DNA of 64,000 bases, from positions 400-64,399 of the forward strand of contig CAZVFH010000001.1 in assembly GCA_964626415.1 (NCBI GenBank), given 5' to 3'. Both the position numbers and the translations under genes were made by a program. A model generated the notes under the pieces. It was given only the letters and a program-made list of their open reading frames with translations, had not been told where the DNA came from and ran no database searches. Positions 316 through 20,072 of the stretch are shown here, piece by piece; within the stretch, counting starts at the first letter, position 1, and every line of letters starts with the position of its first letter. The DNA is from an uncultured Candidatus Saccharibacteria bacterium. Its GTDB lineage: Bacteria > Patescibacteriota > UBA1384 > XYA2-FULL-43-10 > CAINNR01.

Positions 316-404
316 GTGAATCGGCAGTGAATCGGTATATTTTTCACTCGTAAAGTGCTATGATAAAGTCAATGAAAGTGTAAATTCAACAGGGAATAAA
401 TATG
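316..404 (+). promoter_or_regulatory. Repeated promoter/leader module, copy A (upstream of rhuM-like gene)
   Basis: GTGAATCGG..TATATTTTT..AAAGTGCTATGATAAAGTCAATGAAAGTGTAAATTC..GGGAATAAATATG. Contains an extended -10 TGcTATGAT (356-364). A near-identical module recurs at 1790-1907. Confidence 0.45.
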
Positions 405-1427
405 GCTAAAAAAAATAATTTACCTGAGAAAAATCAATTCCTTCTTTACACCACTCCATCCGGCGATGTAAAAATCGGCGTTCTTTATAGAGACGAAACC
501 ATTTGGCTTACTCAGAAAAAAATGGCTGAACTTTTTGGTTGCACGATAGAAAATATTATTCTTCATTTGAAAAATATTTTTAACGAAAATGAATTACTAG
601 AGGCATCAACCACTAAGGATTTCTTAGTAGTTCAAAAAGAAGGAACCAGACAGATAAACCGCACAATTAAGATGTACAATCTCGACGCCATCGTTTCAGT
701 GGGCTACAGAGTTAACTCCGAAAAGGCGACTCATTTCCGAATTTGGGCGACAAAAACTTTACGGGATTTTATCATTAAAGGTTTTATTCTTGATGATGAC
801 CGTCTCAAAAACGGTAGCCATTTTGGCAAAGACTATTTTCGAGAGTTGCTGGAAAGAGTTCACTCGATTAGAGCGAGTGAAAGACGAATTTATCAGCAGA
901 TTACAGATATTTTTGCCGAGTGCAGCATTGATTACAATCCAAGATCCGAAATTACCAAGAATTTTTATGCAATGGTGCAAAATAAATTTCACTATGCCAT
1001 TACCGGACAAACAGCTGCAGAAATAATTTATACCAAGGTCGATAAAAACAAGCCGTTTATAGGGCTCTCGACATGGAAAAATTCACCTAAGGGAAGAATA
1101 TTAAAATCGGACGCACTTGTAGCTAAAAATTATCTTCCGGAAAATAAAATCAAAAAATTAGAAAGAACCGTTTCTGCCTTTTTCGATTACATCGAAAATA
1201 TTATTGAGAACAATCATCTGATGAAAATGGAAGACCTTGCGAAAAGTGTGGATAAATTTCTAAATTTCAACGAATACAAGATTTTAGAAGGCAAAGGGAA
1301 AATATCCCATGAAAAAGCCGAGAAAAAAGCTATCGTTGAATATGACAACTTTAATAAAACCCAAAAAATAGAATCCGATTTTGATCGAGAAATTGTCAGT
1401 AAAATTAAAAAATTAGGAAATAAATAA
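402..1427 (+). CDS. RhuM-family virulence/defence-island protein
   Basis: 341 aa. Has the YNLDAIVSVGYRVNSEKATHFRIWATKTLRDFIIKGF block characteristic of RhuM-family proteins. Confidence 0.75.
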   Translation: MAKKNNLPEKNQFLLYTTPSGDVKIGVLYRDETIWLTQKKMAELFGCTIENIILHLKNIFNENELLEASTTKDFLVVQKEGTRQINRTIKMYNLDAIVSVGYRVNSEKATHFRIWATKTLRDFIIKGFILDDDRLKNGSHFGKDYFRELLERVHSIRASERRIYQQITDIFAECSIDYNPRSEITKNFYAMVQNKFHYAITGQTAAEIIYTKVDKNKPFIGLSTWKNSPKGRILKSDALVAKNYLPENKIKKLERTVSAFFDYIENIIENNHLMKMEDLAKSVDKFLNFNEYKILEGKGKISHEKAEKKAIVEYDNFNKTQKIESDFDREIVSKIKKLGNK

Positions 1428-1435
1428 TTAACTCA

Positions 1436-1465
1436 CCACTTCCATACTTCGAAGTATAGTAGTGG
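1436..1465. repeat. 30-nt imperfect palindrome CCACTTCCATACTTC/GAAGTATAGTAGTGG, directly upstream of the SD of the yerC-like gene
   Basis: Self-complementary with 2 mismatches. AAGGAG SD at 1467-1472 and ATG at 1478. Confidence 0.8.
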
Positions 1466-1477
1466 TAAAGGAGCCAA

Positions 1478-1756
1478 ATGCCAAAAAAGGGAATTGATTT
1501 TGAAGCAAAGAAGTTGTTGATAGAATCTTTAGAAGAACTCAAAAGCGATGAGTTTATTGACTTCATGGAGTCGCTTTTATCGTCAACGGAAATCAAAAAT
1601 ATTTCTCGCCGCATTATGGCGGCAAAATTGCTGCTAGAGAACAACACATACAAAGATGTCGAAGAACTAATGGGAATGTCCCCTGGAACTATCAATAAAA
1701 TTCATTTCAAAACAAAAGGAAGTCCAGCTTTTCGCAAATTATTCAAAAAGGATTAA
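1478..1756 (+). CDS. TrpR-related YerC/YecD-family DNA-binding protein, paralogue 1
   Basis: 92 aa. ..TEIKNISRRIMAAKLLLENNTYKDVEELMGMSPGTINKIHFKTKG.. has the HTH layout of YerC/YecD. Strong SD. Paralogue at 12995. Confidence 0.65.
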   Translation: MPKKGIDFEAKKLLIESLEELKSDEFIDFMESLLSSTEIKNISRRIMAAKLLLENNTYKDVEELMGMSPGTINKIHFKTKGSPAFRKLFKKD

Positions 1757-1761
1757 GTTGT

Positions 1762-1789
1762 CACTTCTATACTTCGAAGTATAGAAGTG
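1762..1789. repeat. 28-nt perfect palindrome CACTTCTATACTTCGAAGTATAGAAGTG, directly downstream of yerC-like gene 1
   Basis: Perfect self-complementarity read directly from the sequence. Confidence 0.9.
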
Positions 1790-1907
1790 GCAAGTGAATC
1801 GGTATTTTGAATAGTTTTCAGATACTTTACCGTTTCGGTATATTTTTAAGGTAAAAAGTGCTATAATGAAGTCAATGAAATTGTAAATTCTCGGGGAAAT
1901 AAATATG
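1790..1907 (+). promoter_or_regulatory. Repeated promoter/leader module, copy B (upstream of radC)
   Basis: Same blocks as 316-404, with extended -10 TGcTATAAT (-10 hexamer 1862-1867). Ends in GGGGAAATAAATATG at 1905. Confidence 0.45.
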
Positions 1908-1938
1908 TCGAACGAGCAAAAAAAAATAACGGAAACAA

Positions 1939-2613
1939 ATGATGAAAATAAAAGACACAGCAAAAGTCGATCGACCGCGGGAAAAATTAGCCAGATATGG
2001 CTCGGAGTTTTTGAAGGATCAGGAACTTTTGGCAATTTTGCTCGGTAGCGGCATCGCCGGTAAAAATGTAATAGAAGTTGCAAAGCAAATCCTCTCTAAA
2101 TTCTCAAAAAAGAAATTACTTGGTCTTTCATTTAACCAATTAAAACAGATAAAAGGCGTCGGTCCAGCCAAAGCTTGCCAAATTTTGGCCGCTTTTGAAC
2201 TTTCCAAAAGGGTGTTAAAAGTTGACGACTCAAACACTTTGACGACTATTCAGACACCAAAAGATATTATTGCTCAAGTTTCGTATCTTAAAAATCACAA
2301 GAAAGAAAATTTTGTTGTCTTATATTTGAATACTCGTAATCAACTAATCAACAAAGAGACAATCTCCATCGGTTCTCTTAATGCAAATATTGTTCACCCG
2401 CGCGAGGTTTTTGAGCCGGCGATAAGTGGATTTGCTTCCAGTGTCGCTTTTGTACATAATCATCCCTCCGGCGATCCGGAGCCGTCTGAAGACGATAAAA
2501 AAATCACCAAACAACTCGTCGAAGCTGGCAAAATTTTAGGCATTGAGGTTTTGGACCACATCATCATCGGACAAGAAAGCTTTGTCAGTTTTAAAGATAA
2601 AGATCTGATTTGA
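1939..2613 (+). CDS. radC: RadC-family JAB/MPN domain protein
   Basis: 224 aa. Has DRPREKLARYGSEFLKDQELLAILLGSG, HhH-like GVGPAKACQILAAFEL and JAB motif HNHPSGDPEPSEDD. Confidence 0.9.
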   Translation: MMKIKDTAKVDRPREKLARYGSEFLKDQELLAILLGSGIAGKNVIEVAKQILSKFSKKKLLGLSFNQLKQIKGVGPAKACQILAAFELSKRVLKVDDSNTLTTIQTPKDIIAQVSYLKNHKKENFVVLYLNTRNQLINKETISIGSLNANIVHPREVFEPAISGFASSVAFVHNHPSGDPEPSEDDKKITKQLVEAGKILGIEVLDHIIIGQESFVSFKDKDLI

Positions 2614-2682
2614 CACTTGTAATGATGTACGCTACTATGGACATATAAAGACTTGCCCCCGATCGCAAGTCGAAGGAGAAAA

Positions 2683-3015
2683 ATGGCTAAAAAAACAATG
2701 ACAATTACCGAAGGTAGAAAAGAACTTTTCAAGATCGCCAAAGAGGTTCAAAAACCAGATACTCAATATGTATTCACCATCGAAGGAAAACCCGGAGTGG
2801 TTTTAATGTCGGCAAATGAATACGATTCCTTAATGGAAACAATGGAGATATTGAGCGATCCAAAAATTATGGAAGATATTAGGAAGGCCGAGGAAGAATA
2901 CGAACGCGGCGAGTATTGTAGCTGGGAAGAGGTTAAAAAGGAACTTGGGTATCGTGAAAAAGAAAGTTTTGTAATAGCCGATAAACCAAACAAGAAATAT
3001 CGGGCTAAGTCATAA
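2683..3015 (+). CDS. Phd/YefM-family type II antitoxin
   Basis: AAGGAG SD at 2673-2678 and ATG at 2683. ..FTIEGKPGVVLMSANEYDSLMETMEILSDP.. is typical of Phd/YefM. Sits 9 nt upstream of the toxin gene. Confidence 0.8.
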   Translation: MAKKTMTITEGRKELFKIAKEVQKPDTQYVFTIEGKPGVVLMSANEYDSLMETMEILSDPKIMEDIRKAEEEYERGEYCSWEEVKKELGYREKESFVIADKPNKKYRAKS

Positions 3016-3024
3016 TAAAGTGAA

Positions 3025-3288
3025 ATGCCAGAAATTTTTGAAGTTGAAACACCCAAATCGATACTAAAGTCGTTAAAAAAAATCCCTCTGCCTTGGCGAG
3101 AAAGAATTCTTGATGCGATGTCAATTTTAGCCAGAAATCCATTTTTAGGCGAAAAAATGAGCGGTGAGCTTCAAGATAAAAGGAAAATTAGGGTTTGGCC
3201 ATACCGGATTATTTATAAAATCAATATAAAACGAAAACATATTATTATTACCGATGTCGGCCATCGCGGAAACATCGGTTATAAATAA
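3025..3288 (+). CDS. RelE/ParE-family type II toxin
   Basis: 87 aa. ..KIRVWPYRIIYKINIKRKHIIITDVGHRGNIY.. is the RelE/ParE C-terminal pattern. Paired with the upstream antitoxin. Confidence 0.75.
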   Translation: MPEIFEVETPKSILKSLKKIPLPWRERILDAMSILARNPFLGEKMSGELQDKRKIRVWPYRIIYKINIKRKHIIITDVGHRGNIGYK

Positions 3289-3349
3289 CACCGCAGCTTA
3301 TCCTGAGCCGTATCGAAGAGCGGGATGTATAAGAAATAAAGGAAATAAT

Positions 3350-3694
3350 ATGAGTATCTTCGATGATTTAAAGTCAATCGCAAAAGTTTTGCAAGAAGCC
3401 GGAAAAATTGAACAGTATAAACAGATTCTGGATGCCCAGAGAGATCTTTTAGAAATGCAAAAGAAAATTAGCGACTTAGAAAAAGAGAATAAGCAACTGA
3501 AAGAAAAACTACAGATTAAAGCCAAAATAATAAAAGATAAGTTTGTATATTATTTAGAGAACGACATTAATAAGGAAAATCCTTTTTGCTCTCGATGTTG
3601 GGAAAAAGATAAAGAATTAATAACATTACAAAAAAATCGTGTTGGTCCTTGGGATTATCTATGTCCAGAGTGTGAAAATAGAGTTGAAATATGA
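3350..3694 (+). CDS. Hypothetical coiled-coil protein with C-terminal 4-Cys zinc ribbon; first gene of the Mod-OLD-Res operon
   Basis: 114 aa from ATG 3350. Has a heptad-rich N-terminus (..LEMQKKISDLEKENKQLKEKLQIK..) and CSRC..x21..CPEC. Its stop overlaps the mod start (ATGA at 3691-3694). Confidence 0.55.
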   Translation: MSIFDDLKSIAKVLQEAGKIEQYKQILDAQRDLLEMQKKISDLEKENKQLKEKLQIKAKIIKDKFVYYLENDINKENPFCSRCWEKDKELITLQKNRVGPWDYLCPECENRVEI

Positions 3695-5448
3695 AAAAAA
3701 ATAATTACCAAAATTGGTCCAAGGAAGATTTAGTTAAAGAAGTCGAAACTCTTAAAAAACGAAAGAAGTATGGTTTGGTGTGGGAGGAAAAGAAAGAAGA
3801 TGTTGTCGAGCAATGCAAAAAAGAATTGCCGGTTTTGAAAGAAGTTAAAGAAAAAGAAATTATTACCGACAAAGATAAGCCGGTAAATTTACTGATCGAG
3901 GGCGATAATTATCATGCCCTTTCAGTTTTAAATTATACGCACAAGGGGAGGGTCGATTTTATCTATCTCGATCCGCCGTATAATACGGGCGCAAGAGACT
4001 GGAAATACGATAATAATTATGTAGATAGCGAAGATGGATTCAGACATAGCAAATGGCTATCGTTTATTGCGAAAAGGCTGAGTTTAGCAAAAAGTTTATT
4101 AAAACCAGATGGAATAATCACCATAACTATTGATGATTATGAGATTGGTCCTCTTCGCTTACTTATGGACGAAATTTATGGTGAAGAAAATAGACTTGGT
4201 CTGATTACTATTGTTCACAACCCGCGAGGTAGAAGTGACGATCTTTATTTTGCAACTTCTCACGAATACGCATTAGTTTATGGTAGAAATTTTAGCAAAA
4301 CATCTACTTATAAATTGAAATTAACGGAAGAACAAGCAGAAAATTTTTTATTAGAAGACGATAAATCTCGTTATAGACTTTTACCCCTTAAACGTACGGG
4401 TTCTAATTCAACACCAAAAGAAAGGCCAAATTTATATTTTTCAATTTATTACAGTTCAAAAAATAACGATATTAGTTTAGATAAAAAAGAGGGTTATGCA
4501 GAGATTGTTCCCTTGGATACTGCTGGTAACAAGAGAGTTTGGAGATGGGGGAAGAAAGCCATTTTGGAAAGAAAAGATTCTGAAATAGTTGTTCGAAAAG
4601 GAAAAGATGGTTTTTATTCTGTTTTTGCAAAAGACAGGATCAAAGAAGGTCGGAAACCAAAAACGGTTTGGGTAGATCCTAAATATGATGCTTCTTCTCA
4701 CGGAACAATGCTAATACAAAAGATATTAGGAGAAAGAAAAATATTTGATTATCCGAAATCAATTTATGCAGTAAAAGATTTATTAGAAGTCGGTTTAAAA
4801 GAAAAAAAACAAGCACTGGTATTAGATTTTTTTGCTGGGTCTGGCACTACTGGCCATGCTATTTTAGAATTAAACAAAGAAGATAGTGGAAATAGAAAAT
4901 TTATATTGTGTACAAATAATGAGTTGAATGGCTTAGAGAAAGAATTACGGAAAAAAAGATTGAGTGAAAATGAGATTAAAAAGTATGGAATTTGTCAAAA
5001 AGTTACCTATCCAAGGTTGGAAAAAGTTATTGTAGGATATAAAAAAAATGGTAATGGTGAAAAGGTTGAAGGTTTGGGTGGAAATTTGAAATATTTTAAA
5101 ACTGAATTTATTGATTTCGATCAACCGACAGATAAGAATAAAATGAAACTAACTAGAGGGGTAGTCGAGATGCTTTGTATAAAACAAGGAACTTTTGAAA
5201 AAGTTTCAGACCAAAAAGATTTTAAGATTTTCAAAGATACCACTCACTACACTGGCATTATTTTTAACCAATTAGCCATTTCAGAATTTAAAAAAGCAAT
5301 TCAAGGAATCAAAGGAAAATTTAGTATTTATATTTTTTCTTTAAGTGATGAAACTTTTGACGAAGAATTCGCAGATGTAAAGCAAAAAGTAAAATTATCC
5401 CCCATCCCCGAAGCAATTTTGAGGATATACAGGAGAATTTTTAAATAG
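3691..5448 (+). CDS. mod: Type III restriction-modification DNA methyltransferase (Mod), N6-A/N4-C class
   Basis: 585 aa. LIEGDNYHALSVL and IYLDPPYNTG (motif IV) precede FFAGSGTTGHA (motif I). This is the beta-class order seen in Type III Mod. Confidence 0.85.
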   Translation: MKKNNYQNWSKEDLVKEVETLKKRKKYGLVWEEKKEDVVEQCKKELPVLKEVKEKEIITDKDKPVNLLIEGDNYHALSVLNYTHKGRVDFIYLDPPYNTGARDWKYDNNYVDSEDGFRHSKWLSFIAKRLSLAKSLLKPDGIITITIDDYEIGPLRLLMDEIYGEENRLGLITIVHNPRGRSDDLYFATSHEYALVYGRNFSKTSTYKLKLTEEQAENFLLEDDKSRYRLLPLKRTGSNSTPKERPNLYFSIYYSSKNNDISLDKKEGYAEIVPLDTAGNKRVWRWGKKAILERKDSEIVVRKGKDGFYSVFAKDRIKEGRKPKTVWVDPKYDASSHGTMLIQKILGERKIFDYPKSIYAVKDLLEVGLKEKKQALVLDFFAGSGTTGHAILELNKEDSGNRKFILCTNNELNGLEKELRKKRLSENEIKKYGICQKVTYPRLEKVIVGYKKNGNGEKVEGLGGNLKYFKTEFIDFDQPTDKNKMKLTRGVVEMLCIKQGTFEKVSDQKDFKIFKDTTHYTGIIFNQLAISEFKKAIQGIKGKFSIYIFSLSDETFDEEFADVKQKVKLSPIPEAILRIYRRIFK

Positions 5449-5452
5449 GATT

Positions 5453-7129
5453 ATGAAAATTAAAACACTTACAATTCACAATTTTCGCAGCGTTAAAGAG
5501 CGATCTTTTGATTTGATAGATTACTCATTATTAGTTGGTGCCAATGATTCTGGAAAATCAAATATTATAGACGCTATAAGAATTTTTTATGATGATTTAA
5601 AATTCAGCGATGAAAAAGATTGGCCTAAATTTACTACTGATGATAATGAAGGTTGGATTGAAGCTAAATTTTTGCTCTCCGATGAAGAATTTAATAATTT
5701 GAAAGATGAATATAAACAAGAAGATGGTGGAAAGAAATTTTTTATTGTTAGAAAATATTTAAAGCACCCAACTAAGATACAAAGCGGATCAAGTAATGTT
5801 TACGGCTATGAGCAAGGCAAACTTTCAGATAATTTCTTTTATGGGTGGAAAAATGTAGCCAAAGGTAAACTTGGCGATATCTTATATATACCGGCAGTAA
5901 GTCAGGTAACTGATTATACGAAACTTAGTGGACCCTCCTATTTAAGAAATATTTTAGATTTTATTTGTAAGAAAATTATTAGCAGCAGTGACTCTTTTAG
6001 TAATTTGAATAAAACATTTGATGAATTTACTAAAAAATTTAAACAAGAGGAAACAAAGGAAGGATTATCTCTGGAGGGATTTGAACAAGATATAAATAAT
6101 GATATTTCAGACAGAAAAGTAAAAATAAATTTAGGCATACGACCTCTCGATGTGGCAGACATCACTAAAAATCTGATAGAACCATATATTAAAGATGAGA
6201 TTTTGGGCGACCATAAGTTACCAATAGAATCTTTTGGAGAAGGATTGCAAAGACGGTTGGTATATACATTGATAAAGTTATCTACAAAATATAAAGAAAA
6301 GAAAAGTGTAAAAGATAAAAAAGAATTTTTCTCTGACTTTTTGTTAATTTTGTTTGAAGAACCAGAGGCATTTTTACATTCTTCTCAGCAAGAAATTTTA
6401 AATCAGAGCTTGGGGGATCTTTCAAATGAAGAAAGTCAACAAGTCTTAATTTCTACTCATTCCGTTCATTTTGTAAGTAGGAATATTGATAACTTACCTT
6501 CAATTTTAAAACTCTATAAACAAAACGGCAAAACCATGATTTTTCAAATAACATATTCGGAACTGAAAAATATTTTAATATCCAATAAAGATTTAAAAAG
6601 GATCTTAGGAGACAAAATTGAAGACAAAGATTTGGATTTAGAGGCAATAAGGTATTCTTTATGGTTGGATCCTGATAGGTGCTGTGCATTTTTTGCTGAC
6701 TTTGTTTTAATTTGTGAAGGAGCCTCTGAAAAAATTCTCATAGAGTATCTAGTAAAAAATGAAGACATTGAATTATTAAATAAGGAAATTTACATTTTAA
6801 ACGCGATGGGCAAAGAAAATATCCATCGCTACATGAATTTGTTTAAAGAATTGGGAATAAAGCATGCTGTTTTATTTGACGGAGATCAGGATAAGGATAA
6901 TCAAGGTCGTCATCAAAAAATAAATGAATTTCTGCAGAATAATAAAAATGAATATACAACCAAAATTGATTATTTTGAAAACAATTTAGAGATATCTTTG
7001 GACATTCCCGAAGAAAATAGACCGGATAAAAAACCTCTTAATGTCATGTGGTATTATAAGAACAATAAGATTCAGGATAATAAACTCAATGATTTTAAAA
7101 ACAAAATAAAAAATTTATTGCCAAATTAA
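5453..7129 (+). CDS. OLD-family nuclease (ABC-type ATPase + C-terminal Toprim)
   Basis: 558 aa. Walker A GANDSGKSN, signature-like FGEGLQRR, Walker B LILFEEPEAFLH, H-loop STHS. Toprim glutamate VLICEGASEK and DxD in VLFDGDQDKD. Confidence 0.8.
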   Translation: MKIKTLTIHNFRSVKERSFDLIDYSLLVGANDSGKSNIIDAIRIFYDDLKFSDEKDWPKFTTDDNEGWIEAKFLLSDEEFNNLKDEYKQEDGGKKFFIVRKYLKHPTKIQSGSSNVYGYEQGKLSDNFFYGWKNVAKGKLGDILYIPAVSQVTDYTKLSGPSYLRNILDFICKKIISSSDSFSNLNKTFDEFTKKFKQEETKEGLSLEGFEQDINNDISDRKVKINLGIRPLDVADITKNLIEPYIKDEILGDHKLPIESFGEGLQRRLVYTLIKLSTKYKEKKSVKDKKEFFSDFLLILFEEPEAFLHSSQQEILNQSLGDLSNEESQQVLISTHSVHFVSRNIDNLPSILKLYKQNGKTMIFQITYSELKNILISNKDLKRILGDKIEDKDLDLEAIRYSLWLDPDRCCAFFADFVLICEGASEKILIEYLVKNEDIELLNKEIYILNAMGKENIHRYMNLFKELGIKHAVLFDGDQDKDNQGRHQKINEFLQNNKNEYTTKIDYFENNLEISLDIPEENRPDKKPLNVMWYYKNNKIQDNKLNDFKNKIKNLLPN

Positions 7130-7131
7130 TT

Positions 7132-9345
7132 ATGCAATTAAAAGATTATCAAGAAGATGCAATCGAAGAATTGTTAGAGGCGACAAAGCAACTTTTGAAT
7201 TATGAAAATCAAAAGTTGGTTTTGAAAGCGCCAACCGGTTCGGGAAAAACCATTATAATGGCCGAATTTTTAAAACAGTTGACAGAAAATCCCGAAATTA
7301 GGCAACCGCTTTCCTTCATTTGGACTGCGCCGAGAAAACTCCACATTCAAAGCAAGGAGAAGCTAGAAAATTATTTTGAAGAAAACTGTGCCTTGAAATG
7401 TTCATTTTTTGAAGATTTAGATGACCGAAAAATAGATGAAAATGAAATTTTGTTTTTCAATTGGGAAAGTATAAATAAAAAGGATAATGTTTATATCCGC
7501 GATAACGAGCAAGAATTTAATCTATCAAAAGTTGTAGAAAGAACAAAAGAGGAGGGACGAGAGATCATATTAATTATTGACGAAAGCCATCACCATGCAA
7601 AAAGCGATATATCACAGGAATTAATAAAGATGATGGGGCCGATATTAACCATTGAGGTTTCGGCAACACCCAAAATGGAGGAGCCAGACGAAATGGTAAA
7701 TGTCCACTTGGAAGATGTTAAAGCAGTGGGCATGATCAAAAAAGCCGTGATTATCAACGATGAGATTGAAAATTTCTTGAAACATAACAAGATAATCTCT
7801 GGGTTAAGAACTGGCTCGGAGGAAAAAGTTTTGGATTTAGCAATTCAAAAAAGAAGAGAATTAGTTAAGGCTTTTAATCAAGAGGATGTTGCGACGATCA
7901 ACCCGTTAATATTGATTCAGCTGCCGGACAGAAAATCTCAAATCGAAGACGAAGTTAAAGAAAGAATAATAAAATATTTAAAAGACAAACATAATATTAG
8001 TGTTGAGAATGGAAAATTAGGGGTTTATCTTTCGGAAAATTACGAAAACCTTGAAAATATAACCAAAAATGAAAGCGAAGTTGAGGTTTTGATATTTAAA
8101 CAGGCGATTACAATAGGCTGGGATTGTCCAAGAGCGCAGATTTTAGTTTTGTTTAGATTTTGGAAAAGTCTAACTTTTTCTATCCAAACCGTAGGCAGAA
8201 TAATGAGGATGCCCGAACTTCATCATTATACAGGTCATCAAATTTTAAATTATGCCCACGTTTATACTAATTTAGAAAATATAGAAATCCAAGAGGACAT
8301 CTCCAAAGATTATATTACAATTTTCACAAGTAAAAGAATTAAAGATTATAAACCAATAAATCTTCTTTCATATTATTCAAAAAGGCAAAGAGAAAGAACA
8401 AGACTCGACCCCCGATTTATAAATATATTTTTAGAAACTGCAAAAAAAGAGAAGATAAAAGATAAAATCAATATTAAAAGTCAAAAATTTAACCAAGATT
8501 TTATCGCAAAGGCCGAGTTAAATAATATTGATGTAAAAGGGAAACTGCCGATTGTTGCCGAAAAAAGAGTAAAATATGTTGTCTCATCTTTAGATTTGCA
8601 AAAACTATTAGATTATTTTGCTAGAGATTCCCTCCCGCCAGAGTTTTATCCAGAAGATCGTTCAATTGCAAGAGTAAAAGAATCAATTTATCACTTATTT
8701 GAAAAAATATTTAATTTGACCTATGAAGACGAAGAAAAGATTGTTTCAATTTTATTGGACGAGAAAAATATCGATTATTTTAAAAACTTAATAAATATTG
8801 CCAAACAAAAGTATCAAGCAGAAGTTGCAAAAAGAGAGAAAGAATTAAGCTTAATTGAAGATTGGAATGTTCGCGAGATAATGAATTTTAATATAAATTA
8901 TTTTAGAAGTGATAAAAAAAGATCTGTTATGCAGCCATTTTACTGTGATAAAAAATGGAAAACAGAAATGGCTTTTATCGATTTTTTGGAGAAACAAAGT
9001 AATGTCGAATGGTGGTTTAAAAATGGAGATCGGGATGCAACATTTCTTGCCGTGCCATACGGCAATGGTGAACCAAAACCGTTTTATGTTGACTTTGTTA
9101 TCAAATTAAAAGATGACAGGATTGGATTATTTGATCCTCACGGTACACATTTAAGCGATTCGAGGACTAAATCAGACGGCTTATTAAGATATATTGACAG
9201 CGAAAATAAAAAAGATAAAAAACTTTTTGGTGGCATTGTCGCTAATACAGACCCGAGAAATTATTCTGGGCGATGGGTCTATTTCAACAAACTAAGTAAA
9301 GGGCTGGAAGATGATTTTAGTAATTGGGAAAATTTAGAATTATAA
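7132..9345 (+). CDS. res: Type III restriction enzyme Res subunit (SF2 DExH helicase-nuclease)
   Basis: 737 aa. Motif I APTGSGKT, motif II LIIDESHHH, motif III VSATP, motif VI QTVGRIMRM. The C-terminal FYVDFVIKLK..LFDPHG resembles a YxPDF nuclease core only weakly. Confidence 0.8.
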   Translation: MQLKDYQEDAIEELLEATKQLLNYENQKLVLKAPTGSGKTIIMAEFLKQLTENPEIRQPLSFIWTAPRKLHIQSKEKLENYFEENCALKCSFFEDLDDRKIDENEILFFNWESINKKDNVYIRDNEQEFNLSKVVERTKEEGREIILIIDESHHHAKSDISQELIKMMGPILTIEVSATPKMEEPDEMVNVHLEDVKAVGMIKKAVIINDEIENFLKHNKIISGLRTGSEEKVLDLAIQKRRELVKAFNQEDVATINPLILIQLPDRKSQIEDEVKERIIKYLKDKHNISVENGKLGVYLSENYENLENITKNESEVEVLIFKQAITIGWDCPRAQILVLFRFWKSLTFSIQTVGRIMRMPELHHYTGHQILNYAHVYTNLENIEIQEDISKDYITIFTSKRIKDYKPINLLSYYSKRQRERTRLDPRFINIFLETAKKEKIKDKINIKSQKFNQDFIAKAELNNIDVKGKLPIVAEKRVKYVVSSLDLQKLLDYFARDSLPPEFYPEDRSIARVKESIYHLFEKIFNLTYEDEEKIVSILLDEKNIDYFKNLINIAKQKYQAEVAKREKELSLIEDWNVREIMNFNINYFRSDKKRSVMQPFYCDKKWKTEMAFIDFLEKQSNVEWWFKNGDRDATFLAVPYGNGEPKPFYVDFVIKLKDDRIGLFDPHGTHLSDSRTKSDGLLRYIDSENKKDKKLFGGIVANTDPRNYSGRWVYFNKLSKGLEDDFSNWENLEL

Positions 9346-9786: not shown

Positions 9787-9896
9787 GATAAAAATTATCC
9801 ACCTTTTCATATCCCCGTCATAGATTAGAGTGATGTTTATACATTGGCAAAAATGTAAAAATGACAATGAGTCAAATTTAAAATATTTGAGGTAAA

Positions 9897-10631: not shown

Positions 10632-10879
10632 AGATAAGGGGAGAATAGGGGGGACTTCACATTTACTCAAATAATTAGTGATAAAAGAGCTATTCAAGAA
10701 AATAATAATCACAGAAGGAAAAAATGGATAATGAAAAATTGGAAAAAATTGAGAAGCGGGTTGAACTGCTTTCGCTGGAAGTTTGTATCATTTATCATAA
10801 TCTATTTCACAATCTAGTTCACATATCATAAACTAACTTACATTGAGCTAATCACATAGATTAGAGTAACATTTAAACA

Positions 10880-10909
10880 TTGGCAAAAATGTGTCAATAT
10901 CTGTATAAT
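10880..10909 (+). promoter_or_regulatory. Sigma70-like promoter TTGGCA-N18-TATAAT. It predicts a leaderless ArsR-like mRNA. Duplicated at 11390-11419
   Basis: The -10 ends at 10909 and the ATG at 10916 is 7 nt downstream. The ACATTT..AAATGT inverted repeat overlaps the -35. Confidence 0.4.
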
Positions 10910-10915
10910 CTAATT

Positions 10916-11194
10916 ATGGAGATTAAACAGATAAAAACTTTAGAGAGAGTGTTTAAGGGAGTTGGAAATCACTACCGAATTAAAACTCTTTTTCTAATTG
11001 ATAAAAGTCCAGAGATATCTTTGGATGAAATAGTCAGAGCATTAAAGGCAAATTATTTCACTATTTCTGAGCATGTAAACCGATTGAGAATTGCCGGCTT
11101 GATATCAAAAAAGTACAAAGGGAAATATGTTATTCATACTCTAACACCTTACGGCAATAAAATAATCACAATTTTAAACAACTTTTTTGATTAG
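10916..11194 (+). CDS. ArsR-family winged-helix transcriptional regulator, copy 1
   Basis: 92 aa from ATG 10916. ..VFKGVGNHYRIKTLFLIDKSPEISLDEIVRALKANYFTISEHVNRLRIAGLISKKYKGKYV.. has the ArsR/SmtB HTH pattern. Confidence 0.65.
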   Translation: MEIKQIKTLERVFKGVGNHYRIKTLFLIDKSPEISLDEIVRALKANYFTISEHVNRLRIAGLISKKYKGKYVIHTLTPYGNKIITILNNFFD

Positions 11195-11425
11195 AGTATT
11201 GTTTATACATTGGCAAAAATGTAAAAATGACAATGAGTTAAACTAAAAATCATCGAGATAAAAAATGGACAATGAAATGCTGGATAAAATTGGGAAACAG
11301 ATTGAACTACTTTCGCTGAAAGTTGATATTATTTATCATAAGCTAACTCACACTGAATCATTCTCATAGATTAGAGTAATGTTTATACATTGGCAAAAAT
11401 GTGCCAATATCTGTATAATCGAATT

Positions 11426-11704
11426 ATGGAAATTAAACAGATAAAAACTTTGGAGAGAGTGTTTAAGGGGGTTGGAAATCACTACCGGATAAAAACTCTT
11501 TTACTGATTGATAAAAGTCCGGAGATATCTTTAGATGAAATAGTCAGAGCATTAAAGGCAAATTATTTTACTATCTCTGAACATGTAAACCGATTAAGAA
11601 TTGCCGGTTTGATATCAAAAAAGTATAAAGGGAAATATGTCATCCACACTTTGACACCTTACGGCAATAAAATAATCACAATTTTAAACAACTTTTTTGA
11701 TTAG
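11426..11704 (+). CDS. ArsR-family winged-helix transcriptional regulator, copy 2 (tandem duplicate)
   Basis: Differs from copy 1 at 2 residues in the track translation (L11R in the spurious 5' extension, F37L). Confidence 0.65.
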   Translation: MEIKQIKTLERVFKGVGNHYRIKTLLLIDKSPEISLDEIVRALKANYFTISEHVNRLRIAGLISKKYKGKYVIHTLTPYGNKIITILNNFFD

Positions 11705-12576: not shown

Positions 12577-12614
12577 TTTAACACTACTCAACTACGTAGT
12601 TGAGTAGTGTTAAA
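12577..12614. repeat. 38-nt perfect palindrome TTTAACACTACTCAACTAC/GTAGTTGAGTAGTGTTAAA
   Basis: Perfect self-complementarity read directly. Same core as 12935-12970 and 33063-33090. Confidence 0.9.
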
Positions 12615-12934: not shown

Positions 12935-12970
12935 GTATCACTACTCAACTACGTAGTTGGGTAGTGATAC
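12935..12970. repeat. 36-nt palindrome GTATCACTACTCAACTAC/GTAGTTGGGTAGTGATAC (1 mismatch), upstream of yerC-like gene 2
   Basis: Read directly from the sequence. Confidence 0.9.
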
Positions 12971-12994: not shown

Positions 12995-13273
12995 ATGCCT
13001 AAATTTGGAATAGACAAAGAAGCACGACAGCTTCTATATGACACAATAAAGAGAACCTCATCTGATGAGTTTGTCGAGTTAATTGAGTCATTGATGTCTT
13101 CGGCTGAACTTAAAGATCTTTCACGACGCTTGATGGCGGCAAAATATTTAAAGGAAAACTCAACATACGAAGAAATTGCTGATACAATGGGAATGTCGGA
13201 AAGTACAATAAACAAAATCCACTTTAAAACCAAAGGCAGTCCGATTATTAACAAATTATTTAAAAAGGATTAA
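12995..13273 (+). CDS. TrpR-related YerC/YecD-family DNA-binding protein, paralogue 2
   Basis: 92 aa, collinear with the 1478 gene at roughly 60% identity by eye. Shares the C-terminus STINKIHFKTKGSP..KLFKKD. Confidence 0.65.
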   Translation: MPKFGIDKEARQLLYDTIKRTSSDEFVELIESLMSSAELKDLSRRLMAAKYLKENSTYEEIADTMGMSESTINKIHFKTKGSPIINKLFKKD

Positions 13274-15394: not shown

Positions 15395-16642
15395 TCAGAC
15401 AAAAGTTAATGCTTGGCCGGATTTTGAACCGCGGCCGGTTCTGCCGATGCGGTGAATATAGTCATTATAGGTTTGTGGGATTGTATAATTGATAACATGC
15501 GAAATATCGCCAATATCAAGTCCGCGGGCAGCGACATCGGTTGCTACTAATATATTGCAGTGGTCATTTCGAAAAGCAGTGAGCGACCTTGCTCTTTGGC
15601 TTTGGCGTTTATTCCCATGAATTGATTCGGCGCGGTGACCGTTTTTACTTAAATCATCGGCTAATTTTTCTACATCGCGCTTGGTTTCAGAAAAGATTAA
15701 AACTTTTTTAAGTTCCGGTTGGTTTAGCAAGTTAGTTAATTTTGAAAATTTTTCTTCATGGGAGCTAACCCTAACAACATCTTGCAAAACATTGGCGGCT
15801 GTGTCGCCAGTTTTAACTGCAACTGTTATAGGGCTTACAAGAAATTTATTTACTAAGTTTCTGATTTTCTCCGGAATCGTTGCCGAGAAAAATAACGCCT
15901 GTTTTTTTTCTGGCAGAGTATTTAAAATTAAAGATATCTCTTCGACAAACCCCATATCAAGCATTCGATCAACTTCGTCAAGAACAATATTTTGAAATAT
16001 ATTAAATTTCAAAAGTCCGCGACATGAAAGATCCCTCAATCGTCCCGGTGTTCCGATAACAAAATTTGGATTTTGTCTAAGGGCTTGAATTTGTCTTCCG
16101 ATCGGCATTCCGCCAACGCAAACAGCGGAGTAAATTCTCATACCAGATGAAAACGCGCGAAGTTCATTATCTATTTGAATTGCCAGTTCTCTTGTCGGGG
16201 CAATAATTAATACTTTTTCATACTTTGTATGATAAATTTTATTGATAAGCGGCAATAAAAATGCTGCTGTTTTTCCACTTCCGGTGTCTGCAAGGCCAAT
16301 TAAATCCTTGCCATTCATAATCGGTAAAATCGCCTGGTCCTGAACTGGCGTTGGTTTTTGATAATTTCTTTTGTCTAAATTGAATTGTAATTCTTTGCAA
16401 AATCTAAAATCAGCAAAATTATGAGAAATTTTGTTGTTTTCTGTTGAGTCCATTGAGATTGATCTTTTAACGAATTTTGAAATATCGATCTGTTCTCCGC
16501 GGGATCGTCGCGAAGATCTATTAAATGATCTACCAACTGTCGCGGAAAATCTTCCTCGGCTTTTAAATGAACTATTTCCTGAACCAAAACGATTCCTGCT
16601 CGAACGAAAACTCGAATTTCTGCTGAAACTTGTATTTTTCAT
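15395..16642 (-). CDS. DEAD-box ATP-dependent RNA helicase with Arg/Ser-rich N-terminal extension
   Basis: Q motif ..PTPVQDQAI, motif I ADTGSGKT, motif II LDEVDRML, SAT, motif VI HRIGRTGRG. Confidence 0.9.
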   Translation of the reverse strand: MKNTSFSRNSSFRSSRNRFGSGNSSFKSRGRFSATVGRSFNRSSRRSRGEQIDISKFVKRSISMDSTENNKISHNFADFRFCKELQFNLDKRNYQKPTPVQDQAILPIMNGKDLIGLADTGSGKTAAFLLPLINKIYHTKYEKVLIIAPTRELAIQIDNELRAFSSGMRIYSAVCVGGMPIGRQIQALRQNPNFVIGTPGRLRDLSCRGLLKFNIFQNIVLDEVDRMLDMGFVEEISLILNTLPEKKQALFFSATIPEKIRNLVNKFLVSPITVAVKTGDTAANVLQDVVRVSSHEEKFSKLTNLLNQPELKKVLIFSETKRDVEKLADDLSKNGHRAESIHGNKRQSQRARSLTAFRNDHCNILVATDVAARGLDIGDISHVINYTIPQTYNDYIHRIGRTGRGSKSGQALTFV

Positions 16643-16820
16643 ACCATCTTTCTTTTTGCAACGAGAAAAATATCCCGATTGCTTTTAATTAATATTTCGA
16701 TTGCCCCAAATGGGAATTGCCGTATAGAACTTCGAAATATTTCACAACTTTCGCGATTCCATAGAACAATTTGTAACAACTATTTAACTATAGCAGATAT
16801 TAAATAATAATGCAAGACAT

Positions 16821-16848
16821 AAAAAAAAGTGGCCACATTGCTGTGGCC
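16821..16848 (-). terminator. Intrinsic terminator of the GC-rich pilin-like gene
   Basis: On the minus strand GGCCACA-GCAA-TGTGGCC is followed by T8 (plus-strand A8 at 16821-16828). Confidence 0.65.
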
Positions 16849-16880
16849 GTAAGGCGTTGAGGCAGAGGCAGAGGTGTAGG

Positions 16881-17588
16881 TTATGGGACCTTGACGACGC
16901 GCCAGTCGTTGAACGGCTCTGTCGCCGTCAATGCCGCGTTGTTCGCGTAGGTGCCATTCCGGCGCGCCCACTTGACATGACCGTCGCAGTATGACAGGTT
17001 GTTCCCACCGTTGTGCGAGGGAATCCCCCTGCAGCTCGTGGTACCGGGCCACTCGCCCGATGCCGAGTGCCGTGCGACGATGCAGAAGCTGTCGGTCAGC
17101 TGCACGGTGGTGGCCGGTTGCTGGATTGCGCTGTCCTTCTGATCGCCCGGGCCGGGGTCCGCCGGGTAGGCGACTCCTTGGAAGTTGCAGGCGCTGTGTC
17201 CCCAGTTGATGCCGTAGCCGCCGACATACCGCGCGCGTGGCGGCTGGTCACAGACCCAGCCCGGCGCACCGCAGAAGTTCGCATCGCAGCGGTAGCTCGG
17301 GCAGTTCAGGATCTGCAGGTTCTTCAGGTACGGCTCAATCAGCACCATCCACCAGTAGCCGTTGCCCCCCGTCGTTGAGTTCCAGCGCGCAACCGGCACG
17401 TTCCGCTCGTCGTAGTCCGAGGCGTACATCCGGCATGCCAGCGCCAGTTGCTTCAGATTGCTCTGGCAACTCGCCTGCCGCGCCTTCTCCCGTGCCCTGG
17501 CGAACACCGGGAACAGGATCGCCGCCAGAATCGCAATGATCGCGATCACAACCAACAGCTCAATCAGCGTGAATCCCTGTCGTTTCAT
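16881..17588 (-). CDS. Prepilin-type N-terminal cleavage/methylation domain protein of the DUF1559 / H-X9-DG family
   Basis: Start [29 protein letters not shown] (G/FTLIE prepilin motif) with SD AAGGTGG. C-terminal [12 protein letters not shown] fits H-X9-DG. Strongly GC-rich, unlike all flanking DNA. Confidence 0.8.
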
Positions 17589-17690
17589 GATATGCACCAC
17601 CTTTAGTGGCAGCATTTCCGCCGAAGCGGTTAGACAGCTATATGATATCCTGTTAAATTTCAAAAGTCAATACTTTTTAAAAATAAATGT

Positions 17691-17720
17691 TTGACATATT
17701 TAAATCATTTATGATATAAA
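17691..17720 (+). promoter_or_regulatory. Candidate promoter of the fusA-tuf-S10 cluster: TTGACA-N18-(TGa)TATAAA
   Basis: Consensus -35 at 17691-17696 and extended -10 at 17712-17720. Lies about 280 nt upstream of fusA. Confidence 0.4.
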
Positions 17721-17803
17721 TGATGATGCAAGGGGAAATTTTTGTTTTAGCAGGAGCTAAAATCCCTACTAAATTACCAATAATATCCCGTAATTACTTA
17801 ATT

Positions 17804-17946
17804 ACCTTGAATCACAAAATACATTTTTCTGTCATCCCGAACTTGTTTCGGGATCTCAGCAGTCGATTACTGAGATGCTGAAACCCTCCATAGGCGGGCA
17901 GGCAAGTTCAGCATGACAACTATTTATCAATTTCGTAATTCAAGGA
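17804..17946. repeat. MITE/REP-like nested-palindrome element, copy 1 (TIR CCTTGAAT(C/T)AC(A/G)AAA)
   Basis: Terminal inverted repeats enclose hairpins ATCCCGAA..TTCGGGAT, CTCAG..CTGAG and GCTGAA..TTCAGC, bracketed by GTCAT..ATGAC. Confidence 0.75.
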
Positions 17947-17999
17947 TAATAGCTATTCCATAATTTTGCATTTTGATTTTTGAATTTTGAATTATTATT

Positions 18000-20072
18000 A
18001 TGCGTGACTATCCTTTAGAAAAAGTTAGAAACATCGGCATCGCCGCTCATATTGATGCCGGAAAAACGACCGTTACCGAACGGGTGCTTTATTATACCGG
18101 CAAAAAACATAAAATTGGTGAAGTGCACGAAGGCGCAGCCGAAATGGACTGGATGGAGCAGGAAAAGGAGCGGGGAATTACAATCACTTCGGCGGCGACA
18201 ACCTGTTTTTGGAATGATACTCGAATAAATATAATTGATACTCCTGGACATGTTGATTTTACCGTTGAAGTTGAACGCTCGCTTCGAGTTCTTGACGGCG
18301 CTATTGTTGTGTTTGACGGTAAAAATGGAGTTGAGCCGCAATCCGAGACCGTTTGGCGCCAAGCGGAAAAATATAAAGTTCCGCGAATCTGTTTTATTAA
18401 TAAATTAGACGCAATTGCCGGTGATTTTTATATGAGTTTTTTCTCAATTTGCCAGAAACTTCGCGCCAATGCTGTTGCAATGCAGCTTCCAATTGGTGTT
18501 GAAAGTAACTTTTCCGGTGTTGCTGACCTACTTTTGCGCAAGGCCTATATTTGGAGCTCTGATGATCTTGGAAAGACATATAAAACATCTGATATCCCAG
18601 AAAATTTGAAAGATGAAGTTGAAAAATGGCGCGCCGATTTGATTGAAAAAATTGTCGAAACCAATGATGAATTATTGGAAAAATACCTCGCTGGCGTTGA
18701 ACCAAGTATTGAAGAGTTAAAATCTGCCATCCGCAAAGCAACAATTTCAGGTAAAATCTATCCGGTTTTTGCCGGCACTGCTCTGAAAAACAAAGGAATT
18801 CAGACACTTCTTGACGCCGTTGTCGAATATCTGCCCTCGCCGCTAGAGATTCCTGCTCCAAAGGCAAAAGTTGCCGGCAGTGATGAAGAAATTGAACTAA
18901 ATCCTTCAGATGATGGACCATTTTGTGCTCTTGCATTTAAGATTGCTGCCGACCCATTTGTTGGCAAATTAACATTTTTCCGAGTTTACTCTGGCAAGTT
19001 ATCTTCTGGTTCATACATTTTAAACACCAGGTCCGGCGAAAAAGAACGAATCGGTCGAATTTTGCGTATGCATGCTAACCATCGCGAAGAAGTTTCCGAA
19101 GTTTACTCCGGTGAAATTGCCGCCGCTGTTGGGCTTAAAGCAACTGTTACCGGCGATACACTTTGTGATCCAAGCAAGAAATTTATACTCGAAGAGATAA
19201 CCTTTCCACAGCCGGTTATTTCAATTGCAATTGAACCAAAAACCAAAGCTGATCAGGAAAAGATGGGTATTGCTCTTGCTCGCCTTGCTGAGGAGGATCC
19301 AACTTTTCGTGTTCATACCGATCTTGATTCCGGCCAGACAATTATTGAAGGTATGGGTGAACTTCATCTTGAAATTATTGTTGATCGGATGAAGCGTGAG
19401 TTTAAAGTTGAAGCCAATGTTGGCAAACCGCAAGTCGCTTACAAGGAAACACTTAGGTCAACTGTTGAGCAGGAAGGAAAGTATATTCGTCAATCAGGCG
19501 GTCGCGGCCAATACGGCCATGTTTATCTTAAACTTGAGCCAAACGAAGAAGGCGCCGGCTTTGAATTTATCAACAAAATTGTCGGCGGCACGATTCCTAA
19601 AGAATTTATCTCTCCCTCTGAAGATGGAGCGCGTGAAGCGGCCGGGAAGGGCGTTATTGCCGGCTATCCGGTTGTTGATGTCAAAGTTACTTTGTACGAC
19701 GGTTCATTTCACGATGTCGACTCCTCTGAAATGGCGTTTAAAATCGCCGCTTCTTTTGCATTTCAAGAAGGTTTTAAAAAAGCAAATCCGGTAATTCTGG
19801 AGCCAATAATGAAAGTTGAAACTGCAGTTCCGGAAGAATACACCGGTGATGTTGTTGGGGACTTAAATTCAAAACGCGGTCAAATAGAAGAGATGTCCGA
19901 TAGATCGGGGGCAAAAGTTATTGATTCGCTAGTTCCGTTGGCCTCAATGTTTGGTTATGCGACAACTTTGCGCAGTATGACACAAGGCAGAGGAAATTAT
20001 ACTATGGAATTTGATCATTATGCCGAAGTTCCAAGAAATATCGCCGAGGAAATTATTGGGGGAAAACAATAA
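18000..20072 (+). CDS. fusA: Elongation factor G
   Basis: 690 aa. [21 protein letters not shown], and full-length EF-G domain order. Confidence 0.97.

Follow-up and report, generated by a model that had tools for sequence, protein, structure and literature searches.

An OLD-family ATPase-Toprim gene as probable cargo between mod and res of a Type III-like restriction-modification operon from an uncultured Candidatus Saccharibacteria bacterium

What is the gene of an OLD-family protein doing between the methyltransferase gene and the helicase gene of a Type III-like restriction-modification (R-M) operon? The question is raised by a stretch of 64,000 nucleotides (nt) of contig CAZVFH010000001.1, from an uncultured Candidatus Saccharibacteria bacterium; the whole of this stretch is called the window here. 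Calling of open reading frames (ORFs) gave four tightly packed genes on the + strand, in the order ZnR-Mod-OLD-Res. ZnR (3350..3694) is a small protein of 114 amino acids (aa) with a coiled coil and a four-Cys Zn-ribbon and without a family match, and its ORF has an alternative start at 3254 that would extend it to 146 aa. Mod (3691..5448, 585 aa) is a Type III-like N6/N4 DNA methyltransferase of the beta class, OLD (5453..7129, 558 aa) combines an ABC-ATPase with a Toprim nuclease domain, and Res (7132..9345, 737 aa) is a helicase of superfamily 2 (SF2, DEAH-type) with a C-terminal domain of the PD-(D/E)xK type. The junctions were read directly: the stop of ZnR and the start of Mod overlap in the ATGA at 3691-3694, the TAG of Mod (5446-5448) is followed by 4 nt (gatt) and the ATG of OLD at 5453, and the TAA of OLD (7127-7129) is followed by 2 nt (tt) and the ATG of Res at 7132. 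An initial annotation of this DNA had given the four same-strand ORFs with the same overlap and gaps; its assignment of Mod, of the ABC-ATPase with an OLD-type Toprim and of the ResIII helicase was upheld by searches with hidden Markov models (HMMs), and no named four-gene system matches the arrangement, as it had supposed.

That annotation saw in the locus a hybrid, a Gabija-like nuclease coupled to a Res motor and a methyltransferase. By comparison of about 170 related loci (L001-L169) we arrived at a different reading. The conserved unit is (RadC)-Mod-Res, and the four genes ZnR-Mod-OLD-Res do not form one. We consider it likely that the locus is an ordinary and widespread (RadC)-Mod-Res operon of a Type III-like R-M system, with a swappable cargo slot that holds a self-contained, second-line OLD effector.

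The position between mod and res

The loci were collected from two sides. On the OLD side one genome per species was scanned, which gave 80 loci whose ORFs were called and searched with the window proteins. On the Res side a metagenome search with a Res profile gave another 80 loci (L081-L160), and a complete Mod to Res pair was present in 67 of them. Genes mod and res were taken as adjacent when the gap between them was at most 20 nt, and the slot was taken as occupied when the gap was longer than 300 nt. By these limits the two genes were adjacent in 40 of the 67 complete loci and separated in the other 27 (about 40% occupied), and 26 of the 27 wide gaps contained an ORF that was on the same strand and set off by very short spacers. 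The contents of the slot were very different from one locus to another. Besides the 40 empty slots, an OLD of the window type was found in two loci (L097 and L101 only) and something else in 25. A second class of OLD was present in L103 (AAA_15 and OLD-like_TOPRIM by scan) and in L135 (by clustering), and the slot of L151 held an ABC ATPase with a partner of 175 aa. The remaining occupants included Hypoth_Ymh/HEPN, RelA_SpoT, Schlafen AlbA_2, TPR and Bro-N proteins, a PHP protein of 894 aa, and about a dozen proteins without a Pfam match; HEPN-type cargo in R-M operons has already been described. The OLD gene is thus a sporadic insertion that is not conserved with mod and res, which is the outcome that the initial annotation had itself named as contrary to its proposal, and the order ZnR-Mod-OLD-Res does not recur as a unit, with ZnR in few operons and the window-type OLD in 2 of 67 slots.

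The clearest case is the closest relative of the window, L161, whose layout is RadC-Phd-ParE-ZnR-Mod-[283 aa, no family]-Res. Its proteins are 80% (RadC), 76% (Phd), 55% (ParE), 52% (ZnR), 64% (Mod) and 85% (Res) identical to those of the window. When both were compared by blastn, homology covered 1961-5443 and 7122-9284 of the window, that is, it ended at the 3′ end of mod and started again 10 nt before res. Since homology breaks around the OLD ORF, it is exactly the OLD gene that is replaced in L161, by the gene of 283 aa.

When 80 Res sequences were placed on a neighbour-joining tree, the picture was the same on a larger scale. The OLD-bearing loci fell in at least five separate places, each near loci with other cargo or with none: the window beside L161, L003 beside L111, L026 beside L084, L097 beside L105 and L103, and L002 beside L092, and only L004 and L101 paired together. 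Such scattering is what repeated cassette exchange is expected to produce, and not what co-inheritance would, and OLD is indeed not co-inherited with Res. The mod/res junction, and to a lesser degree the RadC/mod junction, would then work as a slot for interchangeable cargo of one or a few genes, and the cassettes may pass from one operon to another by homologous recombination in the conserved sequences on both sides, the 3′ end of mod and the 5′ end of res. Repeats flanking the OLD gene, as a sign of site-specific insertion, were searched for and none was found.

Taking into account that OLD lies on the same strand, with gaps of 2-4 nt that leave no room for a promoter of its own, it would be co-transcribed with the operon. 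The promoter scan of the operon gave no signal above background, and the terminator scan found no convincing + strand terminator within it. The gene has the placement of an embedded cassette, between core genes of the host system and in the same orientation as mod and res. For defence genes embedded in Type I R-M, BREX, DISARM and Hma systems, the same orientation was reported in 96.7%, with PrrC, nested in the EcoprrI Type Ic operon, as the prototype of embedding (bioRxiv 10.1101/2024.01.29.577857). The likeness to the embedded defence genes of Payne et al. extends to an ABC-ATPase-linked nuclease that sits in the same orientation between the core genes of a methylation-based operon, to an occupancy that varies among homologous operons, and to a cargo dominated by known or suspected defence domains; the difference is that the host is here a Type III-like mod/res pair, which was not quantified by those authors. 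Our locus is then a new instance of defence-gene embedding in a slightly different host system, and not a new kind of system or a new enzyme architecture. It extends embedding to an abundant Type III-like family, mostly from uncultivated lineages, in which the slot has sharp borders and is filled in about 40% of the sampled loci.

Some of the familyless slot proteins recur. A protein of about 283 aa (the X283 family) was present in L084 (3772-4617), L085 and L161 (10543-11394), and another family of about 307 aa, also without a Pfam match, in L098 (1877-2800), L111 and L160. Further familyless occupants were found in L095 (2850-3491), L100 (4181-5293), L112 (2780-3925) and L120 (884-1957). By their position these proteins are candidate defence genes, and the slot is a cheap source of such candidates.

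The Res nuclease motif and the Type III-like host

The methyltransferase matched N6_N4_Mtase of Pfam (2e-26), with DPPY ahead of FxGxG, and eleven MTase_III models of PADLOC (3e-83 to 2e-37). T3RM_EcoP15I_C gave no match to the window Mod in the Pfam scan, unlike the Mod of L169, a locus with a canonical EcoP15I-like pair. Res matched ResIII (2.4e-24) and Helicase_C (5e-5) and, weakly, REase_III of PADLOC (3e-13), and was not matched by RE_endonuc of Pfam. It belongs to a family of 7610 homologues of about 740 aa, many of them about 60% identical, from across phyla, in which the helicase motifs PTGSGKT, DE(S/A)HH, SAT and QTVGRIMR are conserved family-wide. With Type III systems of the EcoP15I type (Mod2Res) the operon shares a beta-class Mod, a Res with an SF2 DEAH helicase and a PD-(D/E)xK-type domain, and the order mod then res. 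It differs from them in a Res of about 740 aa without RE_endonuc (the canonical Res of L169 has 966 aa), in the RadC gene that often stands in front, and in about 30% of Res proteins having D-P-H instead of D-x-K.

This last difference concerns the C-terminal nuclease-like domain of Res (residues 596-737; 8917..9342, + strand), with E612, PFYVD654F and D668-P-H670. No PDB chain matched Res in sequence and profile searches. The structure model of the full-length protein was poor (pLDDT, the predicted local distance difference test, of 58) and was left unused; a model of the C-terminal domain was used in its place. The AlphaFold model of residues 596-737 had a pLDDT of 82.8 and an alpha-beta-beta-beta-alpha-beta core. 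Its PDB matches by Foldseek were nearly all PD-(D/E)xK nucleases, none of them individually significant (best E 0.016), and included BstEII, R.BspD6I, TnsA, the Cas4-family ACE1, NucS/EndoMS and Hjc. By hhalign, the domain was aligned with the endonuclease domains of canonical Type III Res proteins from OLD-neighbouring loci (probability 76%, E 2e-5), with the E, PD and (D/E)xK positions in register. In the family the C-terminus is strongly conserved, with E612, PFYVD654F, a K, and G-L-F-D668, followed by T-K in most members and by P-H in a recurring minority. From these alignments and the model, Res appears to carry a restriction-endonuclease-type domain of the PD-(D/E)xK fold, in which the window protein has His at the position of Lys (residues 668-670, window 9133-9141). 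The initial annotation had read LFDPHG in place of ExK, correctly, and had left to structure prediction whether a PD-(D/E)xK site exists: fold and motif alignment speak for the domain, and the Lys of the site is a His in the window.

It could be thought that the change from Lys to His marks a Res that lost its nuclease, so that the Toprim of OLD cleaves on behalf of a Mod/Res translocase and the products form an obligate enzyme of three or four proteins. The window does have D668-P-H670 in place of the D-T-K of most members, its genes are packed as if translationally coupled, and its Res is weak on REase_III and lacks RE_endonuc. However, the motif is dimorphic in the family regardless of cargo. 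Of the 67 loci, 39 had D-T-K and 19 (about 30%) had D-P-H-G-x-x-L/F; cargo was present in 16 of the 39 and in 6 of the 19, a similar occupancy, and in 13 D-P-H loci mod and res are adjacent, without any cargo. Seven OLD-bearing loci have a readable Res motif, and five of them keep the Lys, as T-K in L002, L004, L097 and L101 and as S-K in L026; P-H was seen in the window and L003 only. Relatives of OLD also stand beside canonical Res proteins with an intact PDF...ExKG motif or RE_endonuc, and L161 retains the operon with an unrelated gene in place of OLD. Moreover, D-P-H-G-x-x-L/F is itself conserved, which favours a functional alternative over decay. Such an integrated enzyme is therefore highly improbable. 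The suggestion of the initial annotation that the Toprim protein supplies either cleavage or a second effector divides accordingly: the first half fails, as D-P-H is not tied to OLD, and the second is the one that we favour.

The two forms of the motif are distributed in patches on the Res tree: the Res of L161, although 85% identical, has T-K against the P-H of the window. A short C-terminal segment may thus have been exchanged by recombination or have switched repeatedly.

The OLD protein, its contexts and its probable role

In profile searches the 558-aa protein matched AAA_15 (8.5e-28), AAA_21 (5e-16) and, at the N-terminus, SMC_N, and residues 413-478 matched OLD-like_TOPRIM over the full model (7.5e-19). 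The best PADLOC model was Old (7.5e-57, residues 1-526). In an alignment of 23 homologues the ATPase residues were invariant (Walker A G34-K35, Q266 of the signature region, E302/E303 of Walker B and H336 of the H-loop), as were E422-G423 and D476 of the Toprim, and D478 was kept in at least 90%. The clade spans widely different bacteria and archaea, with identities of 50-84%. Such conservation of the clade and of its catalytic residues indicates an enzyme under selection in every context. With the solved OLD and GajA structures the sequence similarity was low (E 6e-11 to 2e-5), and tblastn against P2 old gave 25% identity (E 6e-14). Phage and plasmid collections held only distant relatives of the clade (at most 39% identity in plasmids, and the 25% of P2 old), so there is no evidence that the window OLD rides a known mobile element.

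P2 Old, GajA, the retron Eco8 effector and HEC-04 are OLD-family proteins that defend against phages; in P2 Old, GajA and HEC-04 both the ATPase and the Toprim residues are required, and P2 Old was recently reported to be a tRNase that is switched on by hairpins of phage replication origins. By analogy with P2 Old, TsOLD (the OLD of Thermus scotoductus), GajA and HEC-04, an ATP-modulated nuclease activity and phage defence are predicted for the window protein. OLD would be an autonomous second-line effector, probably abortive, whose ABC ATPase may sense a cue of infection and free the Toprim nuclease to act on DNA or tRNA, and which may serve as a backup of the R-M system against phages that evade or block restriction.

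The same conservation bears on a less favourable view of the gene, that OLD, like Phd/ParE, persists through linkage or addiction with little or no benefit for defence. A toxin-antitoxin pair does occupy the neighbouring junction of the window, the cargo of the slot is highly variable, and arguments for a "genomic sink" or selfish linkage have been published for embedded systems (bioRxiv 10.1101/2024.01.29.577857). Strictly conserved catalytic residues, the high conservation across phyla and domains and the defence activity of the characterised members of the family speak against this hitch-hiking, and we regard it as very unlikely.

Copies of the gene that are split or duplicated were also seen. 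L040 has two OLD paralogues, both of them next to Type III-like genes, and in several loci (L017, L025, L029, L077) OLD is split into two ORFs, likely by pseudogene formation or frameshift; these copies suggest gene turnover.

The OLD relatives were found in several contexts. The closest relatives had Mod-OLD-Res, often with RadC in front, as in L001-L005 and L009 (OLD at least 61% identical) and in L026, where the OLD is truncated (also at least 61%). L167 is RadC-Mod-OLD-Res, with an OLD that is 82% identical, and L168 is RadC-Fic-Mod-OLD-Res with AbiEi-AbiEii in front (OLD 63%). In L169 (1160-7674), a canonical EcoP15I-like Mod-Res pair is followed, after 243 nt, by an OLD that is 80% identical; the Mod of this pair has T3RM_EcoP15I_C and its Res has RE_endonuc. 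Among more distant OLDs (40-57% identity) the order is OLD-Mod-Res with a canonical Res in L064, L074 and L076, and Res-OLD-Mod in L020 and also in L008, where the Res-like c9 protein has no Pfam match. Others of the same distance stand beside Type I HsdM/S/R genes (L011, L014, L022, L030, L031, L035) or Type IIG enzymes like Eco57I/MmeI (L019, L063), adjoin DUF2130, nSTAND3-Mrr or AIPR, or are found among housekeeping genes. The 86 close same-strand neighbours of OLD in 60 loci included 15 with N6_N4_Mtase, 13 with ResIII, 4 with Eco57I, 3 with N6_Mtase and 2 with Methylase_S, and about one third of the sampled wider clade adjoins R-M genes. No dedicated partner gene was conserved across the 80 genome loci, where the neighbours vary. 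Near-identical OLDs beside unrelated R-M systems, one with the 740-aa Res family and the other EcoP15I-like, indicate that the OLD gene moves between systems.

These contexts can be read in another way, in which Mod/Res holds OLD inactive and releases it when an anti-restriction factor of a phage disables the R-M enzyme, as PrrC is guarded. There is a precedent in PrrC-EcoprrI-Stp, and the anti-restriction protein Ocr triggers both PARIS and Gabija; the OLD clade is enriched beside R-M genes of several types, and the subclade with at least 60% identity is almost always in the mod/res slot. Nevertheless, OLDs of one clade (40-80% identity) are partnered with the 740-aa Res family, with EcoP15I-like Res, with Type I HsdMSR and with Type IIG enzymes, in varied orders, and often lack any R-M gene in the vicinity, which is hard to square with a partner-specific interface, and many unrelated proteins share the same slot. 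The effector also differs, being a Toprim here and a HEPN in PrrC, and the masking of OLD by the R-M enzyme is at this point hypothetical. We judge a guard of this kind to be unlikely. A somewhat broader idea is that (RadC)-Mod-Res is a cassette-exchange platform, in which second-line effectors are shuffled through both the mod/res and the RadC/mod slots and whose cargo, including a slot-adapted OLD subclade, is wired to the Type III enzyme, as the Type III counterpart of PrrC-EcoprrI. We put it forward tentatively and with considerable doubt. In such a case cargo would be activated, for example, when Res or Mod is inhibited or stalled on DNA, and the X283 family and the slot proteins of 213-381 aa without known function would be new defence effectors.

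Several points weigh against our preferred reading of an autonomous effector in an exchangeable slot. The OLDs with at least 60% identity and a known context are almost all in the mod/res slot (window, L001-L005, L009, L026, L097, L101, L167, L168), with L169 as the exception, and this could reflect a long residence of the subclade in the RadC-Mod-Res family and functional adaptation, not just shared flanks. In the same way, the R-M adjacency of about one third of the clade could point to real synergy and not to a neutral "genomic sink". The genome and metagenome samples were not drawn at random but consist of the 80 best hits of each scan. Finally, we infer the recombination route of cassette exchange and, by analogy with the characterised proteins, the activity of OLD, its role in defence and its independence from Mod and Res at the protein level.

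By comparison with known systems, OLD resembles the Class 1 proteins (P2 Old; Thermus scotoductus OLD, PDB 6P74), with which it shares the ABC ATPase and Toprim in a single polypeptide and the lack of a dedicated helicase, reverse transcriptase (RT) or split partner. Class 1 was defined as single genes away from other defence genes (PMC10568477), whereas the window OLD is nested in an R-M operon, with RhuM/PDC-S05, RadC and Phd/ParE upstream. The clade described here, R-M-adjacent in about one third of the sampled loci, therefore qualifies a definition based on isolated single genes. OLD-ABC/TOPRIM modules have been described as backup suicidal effectors in BREX and BREX-related loci (PMC12839542); there, too, an OLD ABC sensor and a Toprim are placed in a first-line methylation operon and are proposed to come into action once that first line is blocked, and the difference is again the Type III-like R-M host. 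In Gabija an OLD-type ATPase-Toprim protein, GajA, is also beside a helicase gene, that of the UvrD-like SF1 helicase GajB, whereas the helicase of our locus is the SF2 ResIII/DEAH protein of an R-M system, which is present with or without OLD.

Other assignments of the protein were tried and rejected. For Gabija, no GajB model matched Res (REase_III was its only PADLOC match), and the Old HMM was far above the GajA HMMs, which matched OLD at 1e-32 to 1e-18. A split system of the PARIS (AriA/AriB; Class 4) or AbiL type, with ATPase and Toprim/DUF4435 in separate proteins, was discarded because both domains are fused here in one ORF of 558 aa. For retron-associated OLD (Class 3), there was no RT among the neighbouring ORFs and no retron RNA in the window by Rfam; the NCBIfam model of the retron Eco8 effector matched the N-terminal 62 residues of OLD only, far below its cut-off. 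The NCBIfam MAD3 match, of the MADS system, was likewise limited to the N-terminus of the ATPase and far below cut-off.

RadC, the Zn-ribbon gene and the surroundings of the operon

Upstream of the four genes and on the same strand are RhuM, a small TrpR/YerC-like ORF, RadC and a Phd/ParE pair. The RadC-like JAB protein (1939..2613, 224 aa) matched RadC (4e-43) and UPF0758_N (6e-26) of Pfam. In about 25 of the Res-side loci (L083-L158) RadC is directly 5′ of Mod, with gaps of 4-12 nt, and operons that begin with RadC were also found in the window, L001, L002, L005, L161, L167 and L168. In the literature searched we found RadC nowhere described as part of an R-M system. In L011 and L014, two Type I-like contexts, OLD directly follows RadC.

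The junction between RadC and Mod is filled in the window by the toxin-antitoxin pair (2653..3288), made up of the Phd/YefM antitoxin (2653-3015, + strand; PhdYeFM_antitox 2e-11) and the ParE toxin (3025-3288, + strand; ParE_toxin 6e-9), and by ZnR. The pair is at the same place in L161/L162 and in L083, and a Phd-ParE pair is upstream of Mod in L111; most loci are without it. ZnR had no match among Pfam, NCBIfam and PADLOC families and no helix-turn-helix (HTH). Its 67 homologues have C80, C83, C105 and C108 invariant after a conserved helical N-terminus, in agreement with the Zn-ribbon read from the sequence alone. ZnR precedes Mod in the window and in L005, L139 and L161/L162 but is absent from most operons of the family, and in L163-L166 the homologues stand alone among housekeeping genes, for instance between glmS and rpmE in L163 and amid amino-acid biosynthesis genes in L165. 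A role of ZnR as leader or controller of the operon, as first suggested, is not supported by these data. In all, the RadC/mod junction holds Phd/ParE and ZnR in the window and in L161 (7839-8827) and Fic in L168 (3082-4218); in L005 and L139 ZnR is its single occupant, and most loci have it empty. This suggests that the junction is a second variable position.

Further upstream, 402-1427 encodes a RhuM-family protein (Pfam 6e-105) that matches the PADLOC candidate system PDC-S05 (7e-147). RhuM also separates mod from res in L064, and in L118/L119 it is close to Res. With RhuM, RadC, Phd/ParE and the R-M/OLD genes, the region of about 400-9345 looks like a small defence island. Directly 5′ of the start codons of RhuM and RadC there is a 78-nt direct repeat (332-409 and 1835-1912, 79% identical). 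A TGCTATAAT-like element is part of this repeat, which may serve both genes as promoter or leader.

The rest of the window gave some minor observations. A tandem duplication (10824-11123 and 11334-11633, 91% identical) comprises HTH-like ORFs of 104 aa (10880-11194 and 11390-11704), and a 75-nt element 5′ of these ORFs has copies at 9823, 11189, 11369 and 11699. At about 16500-18000 the G+C content rises sharply, to 0.51-0.55 against 0.30-0.40 around it; the segment may be foreign or unusual, and Rfam gave no rRNA or other RNA family in it. Just upstream of the RhuM region, Rfam matched a DUF3800-II RNA at 123-192 on the - strand, with 71.8 bits (gathering score 43.2). At 1422-1468, 1747-1793, 12579-12612 and 12936-12969 there are near-perfect palindromes of 34-47 nt. 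They flank two paralogous TrpR/YerC-like ORFs of 92 aa (1478-1756 and 12995-13273), which are about 11.5 kb apart and bracket the region of the defence genes, and they may serve as operators, as terminators or as sites of recombination.

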